Shown here: positions 3,991 to 28,227 of the stretch, piece after piece
How positions within the stretch are numbered: the stretch's first letter is position 1
Layout: each line of letters opens with the position of its first letter
Source of the DNA: Escherichia phage vB_EcoM-S1P5QW
Direction: 5' to 3' (one strand)
DNA length: 64,000 nucleotides
Sequence record: OL956808.1
Position numbers and translations under genes: made by a program
The notes under the pieces: generated by a model
What the model was told of the DNA's origin: nothing
What the model saw: the letters and a program-made list of their open reading frames with translations, nothing else
Databases searched by the model: none

Positions 3991-4162
3991 AATTAATGCA
4001 GGATTTACTGAATCTTTGAATGGTCATCTTTGTGTGAAAATTTCTGAAAAAGAATACCATGATAGTTCAATTAAAGAAGTTAATCCTCCTATTGTAAGAG
4101 CAGACCCTAATATGAAAGTGTGGGTTGATTCTTATCAAGTCAAAAAATGGTGGCAGTTATGA
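3956..4162 (+). CDS. Hypothetical protein (68 aa)
   Basis: ORF overlapping upstream gene 3' end; start uncertain. Confidence 0.45.
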   Translation: MMLTHVKFKRLKINAGFTESLNGHLCVKISEKEYHDSSIKEVNPPIVRADPNMKVWVDSYQVKKWWQL

Positions 4163-4405
4163 AAGATGAACACCCAGACTTCTGAAATAGATTATAATAA
4201 AATTCGTTCCTCTAAAGAGGAAATGATGAGACTCTTTAAAGAGTCTCATGATAAAGCTAAAGCAGAAGGAACTATAAAATATAAGCGCATAAAATTTAAA
4301 AGTTCTAACGAGCCTCTGTATGGCGTATTATGTGGATAGGAGCTTCGGCTCCTATATTGCTTTATAAATTTTTGGTAAAATAAACCAAAACAAAGAGGAT
4401 ATTAA

Positions 4406-13413: not shown

Positions 13414-16110
13414 ATGAAAGAATTTTATATCTCTATCGAAACAGTCGGAAATAATATTGTTGAACGTTATATTGATGAAAACGGAAAGGAACGTACTCGT
13501 GAAGTAGAATATCTTCCGACTATGTTTAGGCATTGTAAGGAAGAGTCAAAATACAAAGACATCTATGGTAAAAACTGCGCTCCTCAAAAATTTCCATCAA
13601 TGAAAGATGCTCGAGATTGGATGAAGCGAATGGAAGACATCGGTCTCGAAGCTCTCGGTATGAACGATTTTAAACTCGCTTATATCAGTGATACGTATGG
13701 TTCAGAAATTGTTTATGACCGAAAATTTGTTCGTGTAGCTAACTGTGACATTGAGGTTACTGGTGATAAATTTCCTGACCCAATGAAAGCTGAATATGAA
13801 ATTGATGCTATCACTCATTACGATTCAATTGATGATCGTTTTTATGTTTTCGACCTTTTGAATTCAATGTACGGTTCAGTATCAAAATGGGATGCAAAGT
13901 TAGCTGCTAAGCTTGACTGTGAAGGTGGTGATGAAGTTCCTCAAGAAATTCTTGACCGAGTAATTTATATGCCATTCGATAATGAGCGTGATATGCTCAT
14001 GGAATATATCAATCTCTGGGAACAGAAACGACCTGCTATTTTTACTGGTTGGAATATTGAGGGATTTGACGTTCCGTATATCATGAATCGCGTTAAAATG
14101 GTTCTCGGTGAACGTAGTATGAAACGCTTCTCTCCAATCGGTCGAGTAAAATCTAAACTAATTCAAAATATGTACGGCAGCAAAGAAATTTATTCTATTG
14201 ATGGCGTATCTATTCTTGATTATTTAGATTTGTATAAGAAATTCGCATTTACTAATTTGCCGTCATTCTCTTTGGAATCAGTTGCTCAGCATGAAACCAA
14301 AAAGGGTAAATTACCATACGACGGTCCTATTAATAAACTTCGTGAGACTAATCATCAACGATACATTAGTTATAACATCATTGACGTAGAATCAGTTCAA
14401 GCAATTGATAAAATTCGCGGGTTTATCGATCTAGTTTTAAGTATGTCTTATTACGCTAAAATGCCTTTTTCCGGTGTAATGAGTCCTATTAAAACTTGGG
14501 ATGCTATTATTTTTAACTCATTGAAAAGTGAACATAAGGTTATTCCTCAACAAGGTTCGCACGTTAAACAAAGTTTTCCGGGTGCATTTGTATTTGAACC
14601 TAAACCGATTGCTCGTCGATACATTATGAGTTTTGACTTGACGTCTCTGTATCCTAGCATTATTCGTCAGGTTAACATTAGTCCTGAGACTATTCGTGGG
14701 CAGTTTAAAGTTCATCCAATTCATGAATATATCGCAGGAACAGCTCCTAAACCGAGTGATGAATATTCTTGTTCTCCGAATGGATGGATGTACGATAAGC
14801 ATCAAGAAGGTATCATTCCAAAGGAAATCGCTAAAGTATTTTTCCAGCGTAAAGATTGGAAAAAGAAAATGTTCGCTGAAGAAATGAATGCCGAAGCTAT
14901 TAAAAAGATTATTATGAAAGGCGCAGGGTCTTGTTCAACTAAACCTGAAGTTGAACGATATGTTAAGTTCAGTGATGATTTCTTAAATGAACTATCGAAT
15001 TATACTGAATCTGTTCTCAATAGTTTGATTGAAGAATGTGAAAAAGCAGCTACACTTGCTAATACAAATCAGCTGAACCGTAAAATTCTTATTAACAGCC
15101 TTTACGGTGCTCTTGGTAATATTCATTTCCGTTACTATGATTTGCGAAATGCTACTGCTATCACAATTTTTGGTCAAGTTGGTATTCAGTGGATTGCTCG
15201 TAAAATTAATGAGTATCTGAATAAAGTATGTGGAACTAATGGCGAAGATTTCATCGCAGCAGGTGATACTGATTCGGTATATGTTTGTGTAGATAAAGTT
15301 ATTGAAAAAGTAGGTCTTGACCGATTCAAAGAGCAGAACGATTTGGTTGAATTTATGAATCAGTTCGGTAAGAAAAAGATGGAACCTATGATTGATGTTG
15401 CATATCGTGAGTTATGTGATTATATGAATAACCGCGAGCATCTGATGCATATGGACCGTGAAGCTATTTCTTGCCCTCCGCTTGGTTCAAAGGGTGTTGG
15501 TGGATTTTGGAAAGCGAAAAAGCGTTATGCTCTGAACGTTTATGATATGGAAGATAAGCGTTTTGCTGAACCACATCTAAAAATCATGGGTATGGAAACT
15601 CAGCAGAGTTCAACGCCTAAAGCGGTCCAAGAAGCTCTCGAAGAAAGTATTCGTCGTATTCTTCAGGAAGGTGAAGAGTCTGTCCAAGAATATTACAAGA
15701 ACTTCGAGAAAGAATATCGTCAACTTGACTATAAAGTTATTGCTGAAGTAAAAACTGCGAACGATATAGCGAAATATGATGATAAAGGTTGGCCAGGATT
15801 TAAATGCCCGTTCCATATTCGTGGGGTGCTAACTTATCGTCGAGCTGTTAATGGTCTGGGTGTAGCTCCAATTTTGGATGGAAATAAAGTAATGGTTCTT
15901 CCATTACGTGAAGGAAATCCATTTGGTGACAAGTGTATTGCTTGGCCGTCGGGCACAGAACTTCCAAAAGAAATTCGTTCTGACGTACTGTCTTGGATTG
16001 ACTACTCAACTTTGTTCCAAAAATCGTTTGTTAAACCGCTTGCAGGCATGTGTGAATCGGCTGGTATGGACTATGAAGAAAAAGCTTCGTTAGACTTCCT
16101 GTTTGGCTGA
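13414..16110 (+). CDS. 43: DNA polymerase gp43 (family B)
   Basis: 898 aa; exo motifs and polymerase motifs (DTDS, YGDTDS-like); matches recalled T4 gp43. Confidence 0.97.
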   Translation: MKEFYISIETVGNNIVERYIDENGKERTREVEYLPTMFRHCKEESKYKDIYGKNCAPQKFPSMKDARDWMKRMEDIGLEALGMNDFKLAYISDTYGSEIVYDRKFVRVANCDIEVTGDKFPDPMKAEYEIDAITHYDSIDDRFYVFDLLNSMYGSVSKWDAKLAAKLDCEGGDEVPQEILDRVIYMPFDNERDMLMEYINLWEQKRPAIFTGWNIEGFDVPYIMNRVKMVLGERSMKRFSPIGRVKSKLIQNMYGSKEIYSIDGVSILDYLDLYKKFAFTNLPSFSLESVAQHETKKGKLPYDGPINKLRETNHQRYISYNIIDVESVQAIDKIRGFIDLVLSMSYYAKMPFSGVMSPIKTWDAIIFNSLKSEHKVIPQQGSHVKQSFPGAFVFEPKPIARRYIMSFDLTSLYPSIIRQVNISPETIRGQFKVHPIHEYIAGTAPKPSDEYSCSPNGWMYDKHQEGIIPKEIAKVFFQRKDWKKKMFAEEMNAEAIKKIIMKGAGSCSTKPEVERYVKFSDDFLNELSNYTESVLNSLIEECEKAATLANTNQLNRKILINSLYGALGNIHFRYYDLRNATAITIFGQVGIQWIARKINEYLNKVCGTNGEDFIAAGDTDSVYVCVDKVIEKVGLDRFKEQNDLVEFMNQFGKKKMEPMIDVAYRELCDYMNNREHLMHMDREAISCPPLGSKGVGGFWKAKKRYALNVYDMEDKRFAEPHLKIMGMETQQSSTPKAVQEALEESIRRILQEGEESVQEYYKNFEKEYRQLDYKVIAEVKTANDIAKYDDKGWPGFKCPFHIRGVLTYRRAVNGLGVAPILDGNKVMVLPLREGNPFGDKCIAWPSGTELPKEIRSDVLSWIDYSTLFQKSFVKPLAGMCESAGMDYEEKASLDFLFG

Positions 16111-23599: not shown

Positions 23600-24628
23600 A
23601 TGTCATCAATACCTTGGATTGATAATGAGTTTGCATACCGTGCATTAGCTCATTTACCTAAATTCACACAAGTAAATAATAGTTCAACTTTTAAATTACG
23701 GTTTAGATGTCCTGTTTGTGGAGATTCAAAAACCGACCAGAATAAAGCTCGTGGATGGTATTATGGTGATAATAATGAAGGAAATATTCATTGTTATAAC
23801 TGTAATTATCATGCACCAATCGGAATATATTTAAAGGAGTTTGAACCTGATTTATATCGTGAGTATATCTTTGAAATAAGAAAAGAAAAAGGTAAAAGTC
23901 GTCCAATAGAAAAACCTAAAGAACTTCCTAAGCAACCTGAGAAGAAAATAATTAAATCTCTTCCGTCATGTGTTAGATTAGATAAACTGGCGGAAGACCA
24001 TCCAATTATAAAATATGTAAAAGCTCGTTGTATTCCAAAGGATAAATGGAAATATCTTTGGTTTACAACCGAATGGCCTAAATTAGTTAATAGCATAGCA
24101 CCGGGAACATACAAAAAGGAAATTTCTGAGCCTCGTCTTGTTATTCCAATTTATAATGCTAATGGAAAAGCTGAGTCTTTTCAAGGACGTGCATTAAAGA
24201 AAGATGCTCCTCAAAAATATATCACCATTAAAGCTTATCCTGAGGCAACAAAAATTTACGGTGTTGAACGAGTTAAAGATGGTGATGTATATGTTCTAGA
24301 AGGACCTATAGATTCACTTTTTATTGAAAATGGTATAGCTATTACGGGTGGTCAATTAGACCTAGAAGTTGTTCCATTTAAAGATAGACGAGTGTGGGTT
24401 TTAGATAATGAACCTCGTCACCCTGACACTATCAAACGAATGACTAAATTAGTTGATGCAGGAGAAAGGGTTATGTTTTGGGATAAATCTCCCTGGAAAT
24501 CAAAAGATGTCAATGATATGATTAGAAAGGAAGGTGCAACCCCTGAACAAATTATGGAATATATGAAAAATAATATTGCCCAGGGGTTGATGGCTAAAAT
24601 GCGGCTATCTAAATATGCTAAGATTTAA
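23600..24628 (+). CDS. 61: DNA primase gp61
   Basis: 342 aa; zinc ribbon CPVCGDS...CYNCNYH; Toprim region; matches recalled T4 gp61. Confidence 0.95.
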   Translation: MSSIPWIDNEFAYRALAHLPKFTQVNNSSTFKLRFRCPVCGDSKTDQNKARGWYYGDNNEGNIHCYNCNYHAPIGIYLKEFEPDLYREYIFEIRKEKGKSRPIEKPKELPKQPEKKIIKSLPSCVRLDKLAEDHPIIKYVKARCIPKDKWKYLWFTTEWPKLVNSIAPGTYKKEISEPRLVIPIYNANGKAESFQGRALKKDAPQKYITIKAYPEATKIYGVERVKDGDVYVLEGPIDSLFIENGIAITGGQLDLEVVPFKDRRVWVLDNEPRHPDTIKRMTKLVDAGERVMFWDKSPWKSKDVNDMIRKEGATPEQIMEYMKNNIAQGLMAKMRLSKYAKI

Positions 24629-24825
24629 ATCAACCCAACTAAAGCAAATGCTAAATCTACAAATGTATCAAGAGTAACTACTGGAATATTAATACCATGT
24701 GCAATTGCAATTGGTGATAAAATAAAGTTCCAGAGTAAAATTCCTACCATAGCAGAAATAGTAAAAGCTATACGTTTTTTATTACCTTTTATGGCATTAA
24801 CAAGTGCCATTAATTTTTGTACCAT
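24625..24825 (-). CDS. Hypothetical small membrane protein (66 aa) antisense to the early unit
   Basis: Two predicted TM segments; strong SD AAGGAGGA 4 nt before ATG; tail-to-tail stop overlap with gene 61. Confidence 0.45.
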   Translation of the reverse strand: MVQKLMALVNAIKGNKKRIAFTISAMVGILLWNFILSPIAIAHGINIPVVTLDTFVDLAFALVGLI

Positions 24826-24862: not shown

Positions 24863-24896
24863 TAATCTACTAACCCATGAATTGAAAGGAAAAATA

Positions 24897-25415
24897 ATGG
24901 CTTACTTTAATGAATGTGCTCATTTGATCGAAGGTGTTGATAAAGCAAATCGTGCATATGCTGAGAATATTATGCACAATATTGACCCACTGCAGGTTAT
25001 GCTTGACATGCAGCGGCATTTACAGATTCGTTTGGCTAATGATAAACCAGAAACAAATCGTCATCCTGATTCACTTGAAACTGCAGGAGAAGTTCTTGCT
25101 TGGTTGCGAAACCAAGACGATTATATCGCAGATGAAACTCGCGAGCTATATACTTCTCTTGGTGGTATGAGTAATGGTGAAAAAGAAGCTTCTGCTGTAT
25201 GGAAACCTTGGAAGAAACGTTATTCTGAAATGCAATCCAAGAAAATTCAAGATTTATCTCCTGAAGATCAGCTTGAAATTAAATTTGAACTGATTGACCA
25301 ATTTCACTTTTTCATGAATAAATTTATTGCTCTTGGAATGTCAGCTGAAGAAATCTTTAAACTTTATTACCTGAAAAATGCTGAAAACTTCGCTCGTCAA
25401 GACCGAGGTTATTAA
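24897..25415 (+). CDS. 56: dCTPase/dUTPase gp56
   Basis: 172 aa from MAYFNECAHLIEGVDKA...; matches recalled T4 gp56. Confidence 0.9.
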   Translation: MAYFNECAHLIEGVDKANRAYAENIMHNIDPLQVMLDMQRHLQIRLANDKPETNRHPDSLETAGEVLAWLRNQDDYIADETRELYTSLGGMSNGEKEASAVWKPWKKRYSEMQSKKIQDLSPEDQLEIKFELIDQFHFFMNKFIALGMSAEEIFKLYYLKNAENFARQDRGY

Positions 25416-25615
25416 TGGCTCGTTTAAATAAGCGTCAGCTCAAGAAAGCCCATAAGAAACGTATTGACCAGCTATTTAAAGATTATAACAAGGAGCTCGT
25501 ATGTGAGCTCTTAACTAATCAACTTCGTATGGTTGATTGGGTTATAGAAGAAGGTCCTGACGAAATTTTTGTCAGCGAAGAAGCCTTAAAATTAATTATA
25601 GAGCATTCAAAATGA
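25415..25615 (+). CDS. Hypothetical protein (66 aa)
   Basis: ORF coupled to gene 56 stop. Confidence 0.55.
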   Translation: MARLNKRQLKKAHKKRIDQLFKDYNKELVCELLTNQLRMVDWVIEEGPDEIFVSEEALKLIIEHSK

Positions 25616-25821
25616 AATTTGATTTCTACGCGTGGCAAAAAGCCGGGAGACCGGCTACTCGAGCATTTGGTTCTGATGGATATAATATTAGAGCCCATTG
25701 GAAATTTAATGCTCCAGAAGATTATTCTCCGGTAATTATTAACGGCGATGTTGTTATATTAACTAAAATCGGGTATTTTAACGTTCCGCGAGAATTTATT
25801 ATAAATAATCATGTAATTTAA
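25612..25821 (+). CDS. Hypothetical protein (69 aa)
   Basis: ATGA-coupled ORF. Confidence 0.55.
   Translation: MKFDFYAWQKAGRPATRAFGSDGYNIRAHWKFNAPEDYSPVIINGDVVILTKIGYFNVPREFIINNHVI
25800..25807 (+). promoter_or_regulatory. Late promoter TATAAATA upstream of soc
   Basis: Exact TATAAATA 30 nt upstream of soc ATG. Confidence 0.55.
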
Positions 25822-26095: not shown

Positions 26096-26102
26096 AATTT
26101 AA

Positions 26103-26126
26103 GGAATCCTTCGGGGTTCCTTTTTT
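26103..26126 (+). terminator. GGAAUCC-UUCG-GGGUUCC hairpin plus T6 after soc
   Basis: 7-bp stem (one GU), UUCG loop, TTTTTT. Confidence 0.6.
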
Positions 26127-26136
26127 CGTTTTTGCA

Positions 26137-26166
26137 GTTTACTTTCCAAAATGAGTATGGTATAAT
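26137..26166 (+). promoter_or_regulatory. Early promoter (-35 GTTTAC, -10 TATAAT)
   Basis: CAGTTTACTTTCCAAAATGAGTATGGTATAAT. Confidence 0.45.
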
Positions 26167-26192: not shown

Positions 26193-26399
26193 ATGTTAAA
26201 TCGCTGGATTAAACCAAATGAAGATTTAGATATTATCATTTCACGGCATGTAATGAAGAAATATGAATTGCAACCATGGTCTACAGAAGTTGTTGTGCAT
26301 TCATTTATGATGTACGCAGATGGTTCTGTCGAATTTAATGCAGAGATTCGATATGATTATGGTGAAAAGCAAGTCGAATTTCAAAGAGGCTTTTTGTAA
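26193..26399 (+). CDS. Hypothetical protein (68 aa)
   Basis: ORF with RBS GAGGAGAG. Confidence 0.55.
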   Translation: MLNRWIKPNEDLDIIISRHVMKKYELQPWSTEVVVHSFMMYADGSVEFNAEIRYDYGEKQVEFQRGFL

Positions 26400-26740
26400 T
26401 GTTTATCTTTAATTGGTTTAAAAATTTCTTTACAGATTTTTTCTCTACAACTCCGGGAGAAGGTGTAGTTCCTATTTCAAATGACTATCTTCCTTTAACT
26501 GTAGTTGAATATGTTTATATGGGAGATGGAACAGTAGAAGCAGTTACTATGACTTATGAAGAAGCCCAAGAATATTATAAAAATCCTTGGCGCTGGTCAG
26601 TACCTACTACATCATCTAATGCACAGAATACACAGTCTAGTTCTGATTCATATGACACCAATGTTCCTGTTCATGTATGGGCAGGTGATTCATGTGGAAG
26701 TTCTTGTGATTCTAGTTGTTCATCTACATCTTGTGATTGA
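26399..26740 (+). CDS. Hypothetical protein (113 aa) with Ser/Cys-rich C-terminal tail
   Basis: C-terminus [18 protein letters not shown] preceded by Ser/Thr-rich linker. Confidence 0.6.
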
Positions 26741-27234
26741 GGAAAATTATGGAAGCGATTTTGTTTGAAATGTATATTAGCAGTAATAGCATGTCGTTTG
26801 CTAAAGATGTTCCAATTACTGTAGCCGTAGTGATTGATAAGGGTTATTGTAACCCTATGTATCTCGTAGAAAATTTCGTTTCAATGCCAGTTCCAGAAGA
26901 TGTTGAAATAAAACTTAAAAAGATCGGAATTATTGAAACTGTGCCAAATAGTCCGTTTAGAGCAATTGAAGCATTTACTAAATCCGAATACATTAATGTT
27001 AGCGCAGAACAATATAATGGTAATCCTTTATCTTTTTATTCGTACGATTCAGTATATGACTGGAAAATAAATGAAGGAAATAAATTTATAATTGCGAGTG
27101 AAGATGCTTTATCATACTTTATTTATTATGTATGGAATAATTTAAATCCAAAATTGCTAAAAATTCATGAATTTGACGATGCTCCTACTATTGTTTTAGG
27201 TAAAACAAATGAAAGTTCTGAAGAAGATGCTTGA
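26737..27234 (+). CDS. Hypothetical protein (165 aa)
   Basis: ORF in soc-modB interval. Confidence 0.65.
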
Positions 27235-27412
27235 ATGGTTCAATAGACCAAACTCAATGTATATTGACGATGGTTGGGTTGAACAGGCAAATAAAGAAAT
27301 GCAGAACGAATCGGAAGAATGGATGAAATCAATGATTAGTGCTGAGAAAGAAAAGAAATTAGAACGCTCAGCACTTAAATTGATGAGAGACATCTATGGG
27401 GATAAATCATGA
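27227..27412 (+). CDS. Hypothetical protein (61 aa)
   Basis: Internal start of track ORF 27209..27412 overlapping previous stop. Confidence 0.5.
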
Positions 27413-27573
27413 ACAAGAACATGACGTTAGAAGAGGCTAAAGCTAAAGCAAATGAAGCCTTAGATTTGCTTCTTAAAATCGGTAGTAAAATGATGGAAGA
27501 AAATGAGAAATACATTCAGGAAAACAAAATTCCTGACGGTCCATTAGTAGGCAAAAGGAAATCACATGATTGA
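27409..27573 (+). CDS. Hypothetical protein (54 aa), not in ORF track
   Basis: ATGA overlaps at both ends. Confidence 0.45.
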
Positions 27574-28036
27574 AGTAGCAAAATTATATTCAATAGAATT
27601 TATGTCTAAAGAAGGTAAATCAGTAAATACACTTGATAAAAAATGCTCGTTAATTATTCCTTTAGCAGAAAATCCGGATATTTTAATTAAAGATATAAAA
27701 GAAAGAAAATATCCAGAAAATGTTATTCTAATTATAAAGCATACTGAAGATATTTTGCAGAATACAGATTCACCATTTTCTTCTTCTGAAGCTTTAACTA
27801 TTAAAGGCTATAAAAGAGCTCATGAATATGGTCTTTTTGACATGTTTGAAGACGATAAAGTTAAATTAGCGAGTCAACCTTCTAAAAGTAAAACATTCAT
27901 TATTGAAGATATTAAAGATATAAACGCATTTGTTAAGATGGTCTGGGCTCATTTTGATGTTGGACTACGCTGGAGAATGTCTGAAGAAGAAAGAAAGATT
28001 GTTGAAGCTAATCGTCACTTTGGTTTTTATCGCTAG
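27566..28036 (+). CDS. Hypothetical protein (156 aa)
   Basis: ORF in soc-modB interval. Confidence 0.65.
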
Positions 28037-28044
28037 GAATTAAT

Positions 28045-28227
28045 ATGGATTTATTTGAGATGTTAGAAGATAATCATTCTACGAATATCCAGAATGATTC
28101 TAGTGATTATAAGAAAGAGTACCGTATAGTATTACAGAATTATGGAATTGAAGCCCCAGATGCTCTTCTAGAAGAACTAGCTTCATACCATCTTGACCCT
28201 CCGCCCTGGGCTCCCTGGGCAAAATAA
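28045..28227 (+). CDS. Hypothetical acidic protein (60 aa)
   Basis: ORF. Confidence 0.5.
   Translation: MDLFEMLEDNHSTNIQNDSSDYKKEYRIVLQNYGIEAPDALLEELASYHLDPPPWAPWAK

Follow-up and report, generated by a model that had tools for sequence, protein, structure and literature searches.

What use might a small protein of a T4-like phage make of a tail that is rich in serine, glycine and aspartate and ends in closely spaced cysteines? The question is raised by an open reading frame (ORF) of Escherichia phage vB_EcoM-S1P5QW (OL956808.1), of which a stretch of 64 000 nucleotides, hereafter the window, was analysed; it is a Tequatrovirus (T4/T2-like) genome segment. The ORF lies at 26399–26740 on the plus strand (as do all features below unless otherwise indicated), starts with ATG and encodes 113 amino acids (aa) followed by a stop codon. 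A sequence-only reading of the window had singled it out for its C-terminal tail, and the ORF with the C-terminal sequence quoted there is present as described, as are the aromatic/hydrophobic N-terminus and the Ser/Thr/Gln-rich linker. The tail cysteines, however, are four and not five (residues 99, 103, 107 and 112; C-x3-C-x3-C-x4-C), and the metal-binding or disulfide-rich spacing that had been read into them is not conserved. As the comparisons below show, the most constrained feature of this protein is a disordered C-terminal arm that ends in two Cys-Asp units, 4–9 residues apart and free of CxC or CxxC motifs.

On sequence grounds the identity of the ORF is solid: it corresponds to mrh.1, an early gene of the T-even phages. 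The encoded protein matches Pfam DUF7206 (PF23836) over the entire model (positions 1–107 of 107; E = 7.7e-30; 104.1 bits for a cut-off of 25.6) and phrog_2031 (E = 1.8e-33), both of which carry the label 'unknown function', and the orthologous ORF is named mrh.1 in the records of T2, AR1, RB32, RB14 and PP01. The T4 counterpart (T4p027; coordinates 14685–15026; UniProt P20706) differs by a few substitutions (~95% protein identity for the T4/RB68 cluster), has the same length of 113 aa and the same tail, and occupies the same place between mrh.2 and mrh. Over 2.9 kb around mrh.1, DNA identity is 97% to ECML-134 and Sf22 and 95% to T2, and 546 phage records match. mrh.1 is already catalogued as a T4 gene, named yet uncharacterised, and the literature searched for mrh.1, DUF7206 and P20706 held no relevant main-text mention. 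The remark that nothing like this ORF is found among characterised T4 early proteins is thus right in the narrow sense that mrh.1 is uncharacterised, but it overlooked that the ORF is itself a T4 gene.

The tail proper spans residues 96–113 (26684–26737), a conserved Ser/Gly/Asp/Tyr/Cys arm. Is it more than an accident of composition? Cys makes up 22% of the 18 residues of the T4-type tail, and among the window ORFs of 80 aa or more mrh.1 alone has four or more Cys within 18 residues, but such a cluster arises in 10% of residue shuffles of the window ORFs, so that tail composition alone is weak evidence. The Cys cluster might then be incidental to a Ser-rich disordered tail, one base change being enough to turn Ser (TCT or AGT) into Cys (TGT), or the ORF might not be expressed at all.

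Conservation bears directly on this point. A single-sequence search recovered close Tequatrovirus relatives only; starting from IMG/VR loci, a profile was built with which 122 proteins were retrieved, of which 116 full-length proteins were counted, and the alignment holds 117 sequences. Distant IMG/VR homologues show 31–50% identity in the N-terminal half. Named sources are T4-like phages of Enterobacterales (Escherichia, Salmonella, Enterobacter, Edwardsiella and Serratia hosts), to which a listing of annotated records adds Shigella, Yersinia and Citrobacter among other hosts, and an exhaustive phmmer search against 1.84 billion representatives returned family members, two low-complexity matches and nothing else. 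Elsewhere the 116 sequences are only 30–60% identical, yet the Cys pair and the terminal Asp hardly vary or do not vary at all. The proteins end in Cys-Asp in 114 cases and in Cys-Asn in two, their last three residues are SCD in 106, and a second Cys lies 4–9 residues upstream of the terminal one in all 116, nearly always in an [S/G]-S-C-D-S context, with G-S-C or S-S-C before the first invariant Cys in 103. In the window protein the first unit is Cys103-Asp104 (26705–26710; S-C-D-S in the family, with C103, D104 and S105 near-invariant in the full alignment) and the second is Cys112-Asp113-COOH (26732–26737), C112 being invariant. The two other cysteines, Cys99 (26693–26695) and Cys107 (26717–26719, in the spacer between the invariant pair), are lineage-specific and align with Ser and Gly of other genera (Ser in the case of Cys99). 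The number of tail Cys is four in Tequatrovirus, three in ESCO47 and exactly two in all other family members, while in some alignments RB69-type tails have a Tyr near the Cys103 position. Conservation of the Cys tail in orthologues, on which the sequence-only reading had staked its proposal, therefore holds across several T4-like genera, but for just two of the four Cys.

The remainder of the tail is also recognizable throughout the family, 59 distinct tail variants of which were compared. Its last 25 residues are 43% Ser, 14% Asp, 13% Gly, 8% Cys and 8% Tyr, and Tyr-Asp-Ser-Gly-like repeats make up the part upstream of the Cys pair, which gives a signature of the form [S/G]-S-C-D-S-[S/G]-x(2-6)-[S/G/T]-C-D-COOH after Tyr-Asp/Ser-Gly repeats. 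The window protein has all the family motifs (W/F-x-K-x-x-F helix, EYVYMGDG and S-C-D-S...[S/G/T]-C-D-COOH). Tail codons differ between genomes almost solely synonymously (TGT/TGC, GAT/GAC, all Ser codons, TGA and TAA stops), and the ratio of non-synonymous to synonymous change (pN/pS, Nei–Gojobori) is 0.03–0.07 in the tail at pS values of 0.3–0.64, i.e. with near-saturated synonymous change; comparisons with one locus (L026), distorted by a one-codon shift, were left out. The tail is under strong purifying selection. A cause at the DNA level was ruled out, since a tandem repeat was looked for in the tail DNA and none was found, and the terminal codons are not fixed by a downstream ribosome-binding site: T4-type mrh.1 stops with TGA and is followed by mrh, RB69/JS98-type mrh.1 stops with TAA and is followed by srh, and because the clades share neither the stop codon nor the gene that comes next, the terminal Cys-Asp cannot be imposed from there. 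Conserved in 116 of 116 homologues and with so low a pN/pS, the tail is more than chance.

Is the gene expressed? Its ATG overlaps the stop codon of mrh.2 (TAATG), which suggests translational coupling of the two genes, and a GAGG lies 9 nt upstream. The T4 mrh.1 transcript is classed as early in the supplement of PMC9697503. In T4-infected cells analysed by liquid chromatography coupled to mass spectrometry (LC-MS), the list in the same supplement has Mrh.2, Mrh, Srh and ModA.4 as detected and Mrh.1 as not detected. This was rejected as evidence against translation: the tryptic peptides of Mrh.1 are 8, 53, 4 and 48 residues long and gp56 is likewise 'NA' in that list (PMC9697503 supplement), so the non-detection is uninformative, and the published trypsin data are blind to the C-terminal peptide because of its 48 residues. 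In a genome-wide CRISPRi-ART screen, a translational knock-down with dCas13d, T4 mrh.1 is scored 'Semi-Fit' (0.79, p 0.069) in the supplementary data, where mrh.2, mrh, srh and soc are 'Not Fit'; the semi-fit T4 genes whose function is purely unknown number five in the authors' list, and mrh.1 is one of them (PMC11879866 supplement). mrh.1 belongs to the delta-12 region of T4, which is deletable (16,280–3,778; PMC6070864), and is therefore an accessory gene. Purifying selection, coupling to mrh.2, the early transcript and the 'Semi-Fit' knock-down all speak for a translated ORF, and the picture that emerges is that of a small, non-essential, selectively maintained early protein. The idea of an incidental tail, in favour of which one could cite the shuffles, the lineage specificity of two of the four Cys and the LC-MS result, is largely refuted by the near-invariance of the Cys pair and terminal Asp in the 116 proteins, the low pN/pS and the knock-down, with peptide lengths accounting for the mass spectrometry; we consider it highly improbable. 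That the tail is a functional module, as had been proposed, is in turn supported by its conservation across genera in a gene that behaves as translated.

How is the arm presented? The AlphaFold models of the window protein and of an RB69-type homologue, both computed with the 117-sequence alignment, are of low confidence (mean predicted local distance difference test (pLDDT) score ~59–60; 59.9 for the window protein). In the window model a helix (4–15) is followed by two strands (34–40 and 46–52) and helices at 53–61 and 63–66, and the chain is disordered from about residue 67 onwards; the homologue is modelled with the same hairpin plus low-confidence linker helices, and the tail has a pLDDT below 50 in both. 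The N-terminal amphipathic helix (residues 1–16; 26399–26446), with the family pattern M-I-x-W-L-K-N-L-F-K and near-invariant K8 and F15, has a hydrophobic moment of 0.44–0.62, comparable to that of the membrane-targeting helices of MinD and FtsA (0.27–0.57). Like these it is a short helix of W/F/L/I and Lys, but it is N-terminal, unusually aromatic in the T4-type proteins and contains an Asp, and the computed moment of this predicted helix is no more than suggestive of a membrane-targeting element. A conserved P-G-E-G-V-V-P motif follows (residues 19–25; 26453–26473), in which P19 and P25 are near-invariant in the 117-sequence alignment. The sole confidently modelled fold is a β-hairpin (E-Y-V-Y-M-G-D-G-x-x-E-E-V, residues 37–52) with the helix after it (53–66; the block spans 26507–26596, pLDDT 77–87), whose invariant or near-invariant columns are E37, Y40, G42, D43, G44, E47, E48 and V49. 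Between this module and the tail lies a variable, disordered Ser/Thr/Gln/Asn-rich linker (residues 67–95, ending VPVHVW; 26597–26683; pLDDT <50), the length and sequence of which differ so widely between genera that the alignment spans 313 columns for proteins of ~110–200 aa.

What, then, might the arm do? We tentatively suggest that it may be a flexible thiolate/carboxylate arm binding a metal or the metal or thiol centre of a partner, a possibility that stops short of being probable. Its ligand-like features are the Asp that follows each invariant Cys, the Tyr-Asp dyads upstream and the placing of the extra Tequatrovirus Cys where other genera have Ser, Tyr or Gly. The arm could itself chelate a metal, the ligands being two Cys, Asp and the carboxylate of the C-terminus, a set that dimerisation might double; with their four Cys, T4-type tails would allow a site within one chain, strengthening or internalising the ligand set. 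Alternatively, the arm could reach into a host protein's metal or thiol centre, and the N-terminal module would then dock it at the target or hold it at the membrane. Either way, a host function would be modulated at an early stage of infection.

Several points weigh against this proposal. Two Cys at a spacing of 4–9, with no His, CxC or CxxC, are atypical of structural metal sites, and the exact conservation of the C-terminal residue would be explained no less well by recognition through an enzyme or a binding pocket than by chelation. Foldseek searches of the Mrh.1 models against BFVD and PDB gave family members or noise only, a PDB profile search gave nothing significant (the best match, a capsid protein at E = 0.17, is probably due to chance), and NCBIfam and PADLOC (anti-defence/defence) models did not match Mrh.1; the modelling and profile searches that had been recommended for this ORF thus delivered a predicted hairpin–helix module, but no structural or family match pointing to a function. 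To these must be added the LC-MS non-detection, the weak fitness signal and the location in a deletable region, all mentioned above.

Comparison with known metal-binding proteins is equally two-sided. With metallothioneins and the Cys-rich tails of metallochaperones (e.g. SlyD and HypB), Mrh.1 shares a low-complexity Cys/Asp segment that could chelate soft or borderline metals, but the family has two Cys, no CxC/CxxC and no His, in a tail that is mostly Ser, Gly, Tyr and Asp. A conserved CxC, CxxC or CC arrangement of the metallothionein type was not found in the family, the four-Cys state being confined to Tequatrovirus, and there is no sign of a zinc finger or zinc ribbon in the window protein, which has no CxxC motif, a tail predicted to be disordered and no zinc-finger Pfam match.

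Mobile C-terminal Cys pairs occur in redox and metal enzymes. The α subunit of class Ia ribonucleotide reductase (RNR) has one in a CX4C tail (...C-E-S-G-A-C-K-I in E. coli NrdA) and mercuric reductase MerA has another, and these arms swing into another site. Both resemble Mrh.1 in having a disordered C-terminal arm with two Cys a few small residues apart and acidic neighbours. Mrh.1 differs in being a small stand-alone protein with no enzyme domain, in the 4–9 spacing, in the invariant Asp after each Cys and in showing no homology to them. The invariant Cys pair might accordingly be a dithiol/disulfide couple that shuttles reducing equivalents, or a pseudo-substrate that occupies thioredoxin, glutaredoxin or another thiol-dependent enzyme. 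Exactly two Cys are conserved, as such a couple would have it, a ring of variable size is better tolerated by a disulfide loop than by a rigid metal site, and Tyr and Cys, both of which are redox-active, fill this part of the tail in different genera. Nevertheless, such a role would leave the invariant Asp residues and the invariant C-terminal position unexplained, no homology to any redox protein was found in the Pfam, NCBIfam, PDB profile and Foldseek searches, the cytoplasm is reducing, and Mrh.1 has no export signal. A redox arm or decoy is in our view unlikely.

That the tail can do without the rest of the protein is indicated by two mini-proteins from Citrobacter phage Ci1 and related contigs (P0126 and P0127; 47 and 58 aa), which consist of the C-terminal half of DUF7206 only. 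They are made up of a basic helix, a Y-V-D-D-Y-T-P segment (YVDDYTPSY) and then SYDSCDSSSPSCD at the C-terminus, ending ...S-Y-D-S-C-D-S-S-S-P-S-C-D-COOH, and they score 29.5 and 25.5 bits against the DUF7206 cut-off of 25.6, i.e. one passes and one is at the threshold; P0127 passes on model positions 53–107 only. The gene found by the tail profile in Citrobacter phage Ci1 (OR515478.1) is at 4001–4177 of the locus (L030), and that of P0127 comes directly after a Dda-like helicase gene, not at the mrh.1 position. Since the C-terminal half can stand alone, the tail is indicated to be the working part of the protein. When a profile made from the final 42 residues was searched for, no unrelated family with such a tail came up, but only these truncated DUF7206 proteins and one doubtful zinc-ribbon protein. 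The latter (P0128; 4001–4198 of L033, Logan contig SRR28219342_1358783) is 65 aa long; its N-terminus, with CxxC...CxxC, resembles a zinc ribbon, and its tail, ...YDSGSSCDSGSCGSSD, resembles that of DUF7206 but has no Cys-Asp end. At E 2.9 in the database search the similarity is weak, and translational coupling joins the gene to a Band_7 gene within a cluster of the TelA/TerC type.

The persistence of the tail half on its own would also suit a docking motif. The C-terminal ...S-C-D-COOH and the upstream S-C-D-S could together be a peptide ligand for a host or phage C-terminus-binding domain, protease or chaperone, the Cys serving the fit, or a covalent or metal-bridged contact in the partner site, rather than binding free metal. 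As one would look for in such a ligand, [S/G/T]-C-[D/N] is conserved almost absolutely and forms the true C-terminus of all 116 proteins, and the tail around it is predicted to be disordered; the confinement of the family to phages of Enterobacterales would fit a host-specific target. What it does not account for is the long Ser/Tyr/Asp/Gly repeat upstream, which is also conserved and goes beyond the need of a C-terminal tripeptide; a docking role on its own terms strikes us as rather improbable.

Could the tail be a substrate for modification, as had also been suggested? McbA, from which microcin B17 is made, contains G-S-C sites within a Gly/Ser/Cys core, and precursors of linear azole-containing peptides resemble Mrh.1 in having an N-terminal recognition region followed by a Gly/Ser/Cys-rich stretch that includes G-S-C. 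By analogy with such ribosomally synthesized and post-translationally modified peptides (RiPPs), the N-terminal region would be a leader and the Ser/Cys/Gly-rich end a core to be heterocyclised, cross-linked or otherwise modified. The conserved N-terminal region, the Ser/Cys/Gly/Asp-rich end with its frequent G-S-C or S-S-C and the invariant exact C-terminus are compatible with this. Mrh.1 is unlike McbA, however, in its invariant Asp, in its exact C-terminus and in a tail that persists in mini-proteins lacking the N-terminal 'leader'; a protein of 113 aa with a long linker is not a typical precursor, and no RiPP family in Pfam or NCBIfam matches it. No cyclodehydratase or dehydrogenase gene was found near mrh.1 at the loci examined, where no modifying enzyme adjoins it (the neighbours being 56, soc, mrh.2, mrh, srh, modA.2–4 and ModB). 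Modification of this kind is very unlikely.

The preferred reading of the tail as a thiolate/carboxylate arm can be taken one step further. The di-(Cys-Asp) arm might represent an undescribed portable effector module of T4-like phages, a tethered 'finger' that would insert into a host metallo- or thiol-enzyme, or strip metal or sulfur species from it or donate them to it, with the hairpin module or the membrane helix providing the targeting. Fe-S or sulfur-relay proteins, thioredoxin/glutaredoxin or a zinc-dependent enzyme are examples of what its targets could be. The modularity of such an arm is supported by the tail-only mini-proteins; the proposal as a whole is doubtful.

About a third of T4 genes still have no assigned function. 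For this one, the analysis has added a C-terminal signature common to the whole family, a separation of the tail Cys into invariant and lineage-specific ones, evidence that selection on the tail is purifying, and the tail-only mini-proteins. Other genera dispense with two of the four Cys of the T4 tail, and C103, C112, D113 and a deletion of the tail offer a precise and cheap mutational handle. Should the arm prove to act on a metal or thiol system of the host, it would represent a phage takeover device of a new kind; otherwise Mrh.1 would be a minor accessory protein.

Some copies of mrh.1 depart from the common layout. A 164-aa protein of Escherichia phage 235Ecol030PP (P0003; Yersinia phage fPS-90 in BFVD) is a mosaic in which a T4-type N-terminal half and linker are followed by an RB69-type insert (MEEIIRQPEKAGNVG...) and then by a four-Cys T4-type tail, which suggests, from the sequence, recombination within the gene between T4-type and RB69-type forms of the family. 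Other copies carry a frameshift (L020 2095–2425, IMGVR_UViG_3300006879_000208, and P0006): L007/L020 reads just 35 aa in frame, and P0006 enters a +1-frame ORF equal to window 26556–26768, so that these are either occasional pseudogenes or sequencing errors. The 70-aa ORF that overlaps mrh.1 at 26556–26768 was dismissed as spurious, the frameshifted P0006 entry being the only protein that reads in that frame.

In the window, the gene order is 56 (dCTPase), two small ORFs, soc, mrh.2, mrh.1, mrh, srh, modA.4, modA.3, modA.2 and a ModA/ModB-type ADP-ribosyltransferase gene, which bears the name modB in Aplg8. A scan located an intrinsic-terminator-like hairpin with a T-run after soc (26101–26132; hairpin 26101–26122), at a site annotated as an early terminator in phage Aplg8, and it marks the upstream boundary of the mrh.2–mrh.1 transcription unit. 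Just downstream, a σ70-type promoter-like site with an extended TG (TTTACT-17-TATAAT; 26138–26166) is, by consensus match only, a candidate early promoter for mrh.2–mrh.1–mrh–srh, in a region where σ70-like matches are as many as expected from shuffles. mrh.2 (26193–26399; 68 aa; phrog_1873, unknown function) comes next, its stop overlapping the mrh.1 start. At the other end, the mrh.1 stop codon and the bases after it (26738–26748) provide the Shine–Dalgarno sequence (TGAGGA) of mrh (26749–27234; ATG at 26749), the product of which matches Pfam T4_MRH.

When the window genes were compared by tblastn with 13 loci, the order 56–soc–mrh.2–mrh.1–(mrh)–srh–modA.4 was found to be kept. mrh.2–mrh.1 is maintained in Tequatrovirus and RB69/JS98-like phages, and mrh.2 was not found in loci L026 and L027. 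In RB69/JS98-like contigs (L021–L025), mrh.2, mrh.1 and srh have been kept, but srh follows mrh.1 without an intervening mrh. Hence the genes of the 'mrh' cluster do not make up a fixed functional unit, and a functional tie of Mrh.1 to Mrh was ruled out on the same grounds.

Further upstream, the primase gene 61 (23600–24628) and gene 56 (24894–25415) are separated by a 66-aa hydrophobic ORF on the minus strand (24625–24825; phrog_2024, unknown function) and, unlike in T2, not by a dam gene. The two small ORFs between 56 and soc (25415–25821) are at the positions of Soc.1 and Soc.2, and one of them matches DUF7422; PHROG calls them 'virion structural protein' and 'head protein', names that seem to have been carried over from the neighbouring soc and do not amount to evidence. 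In T4 the 56–soc position is occupied by segF, which the window lacks. Downstream, modA.4, modA.3 and modA.2 (27409–28227; 2191–3009 of L028) are called 'molybdenum ABC transporter periplasmic molybdenum-binding protein' in Aplg8, and a record listing apparently has the same label in FL12, SHBML-50-1, GiZh and AV122. As a lead to a metal these labels were rejected, for they sit on ModA.2–4 and stem from a mix-up with the E. coli gene name modA.

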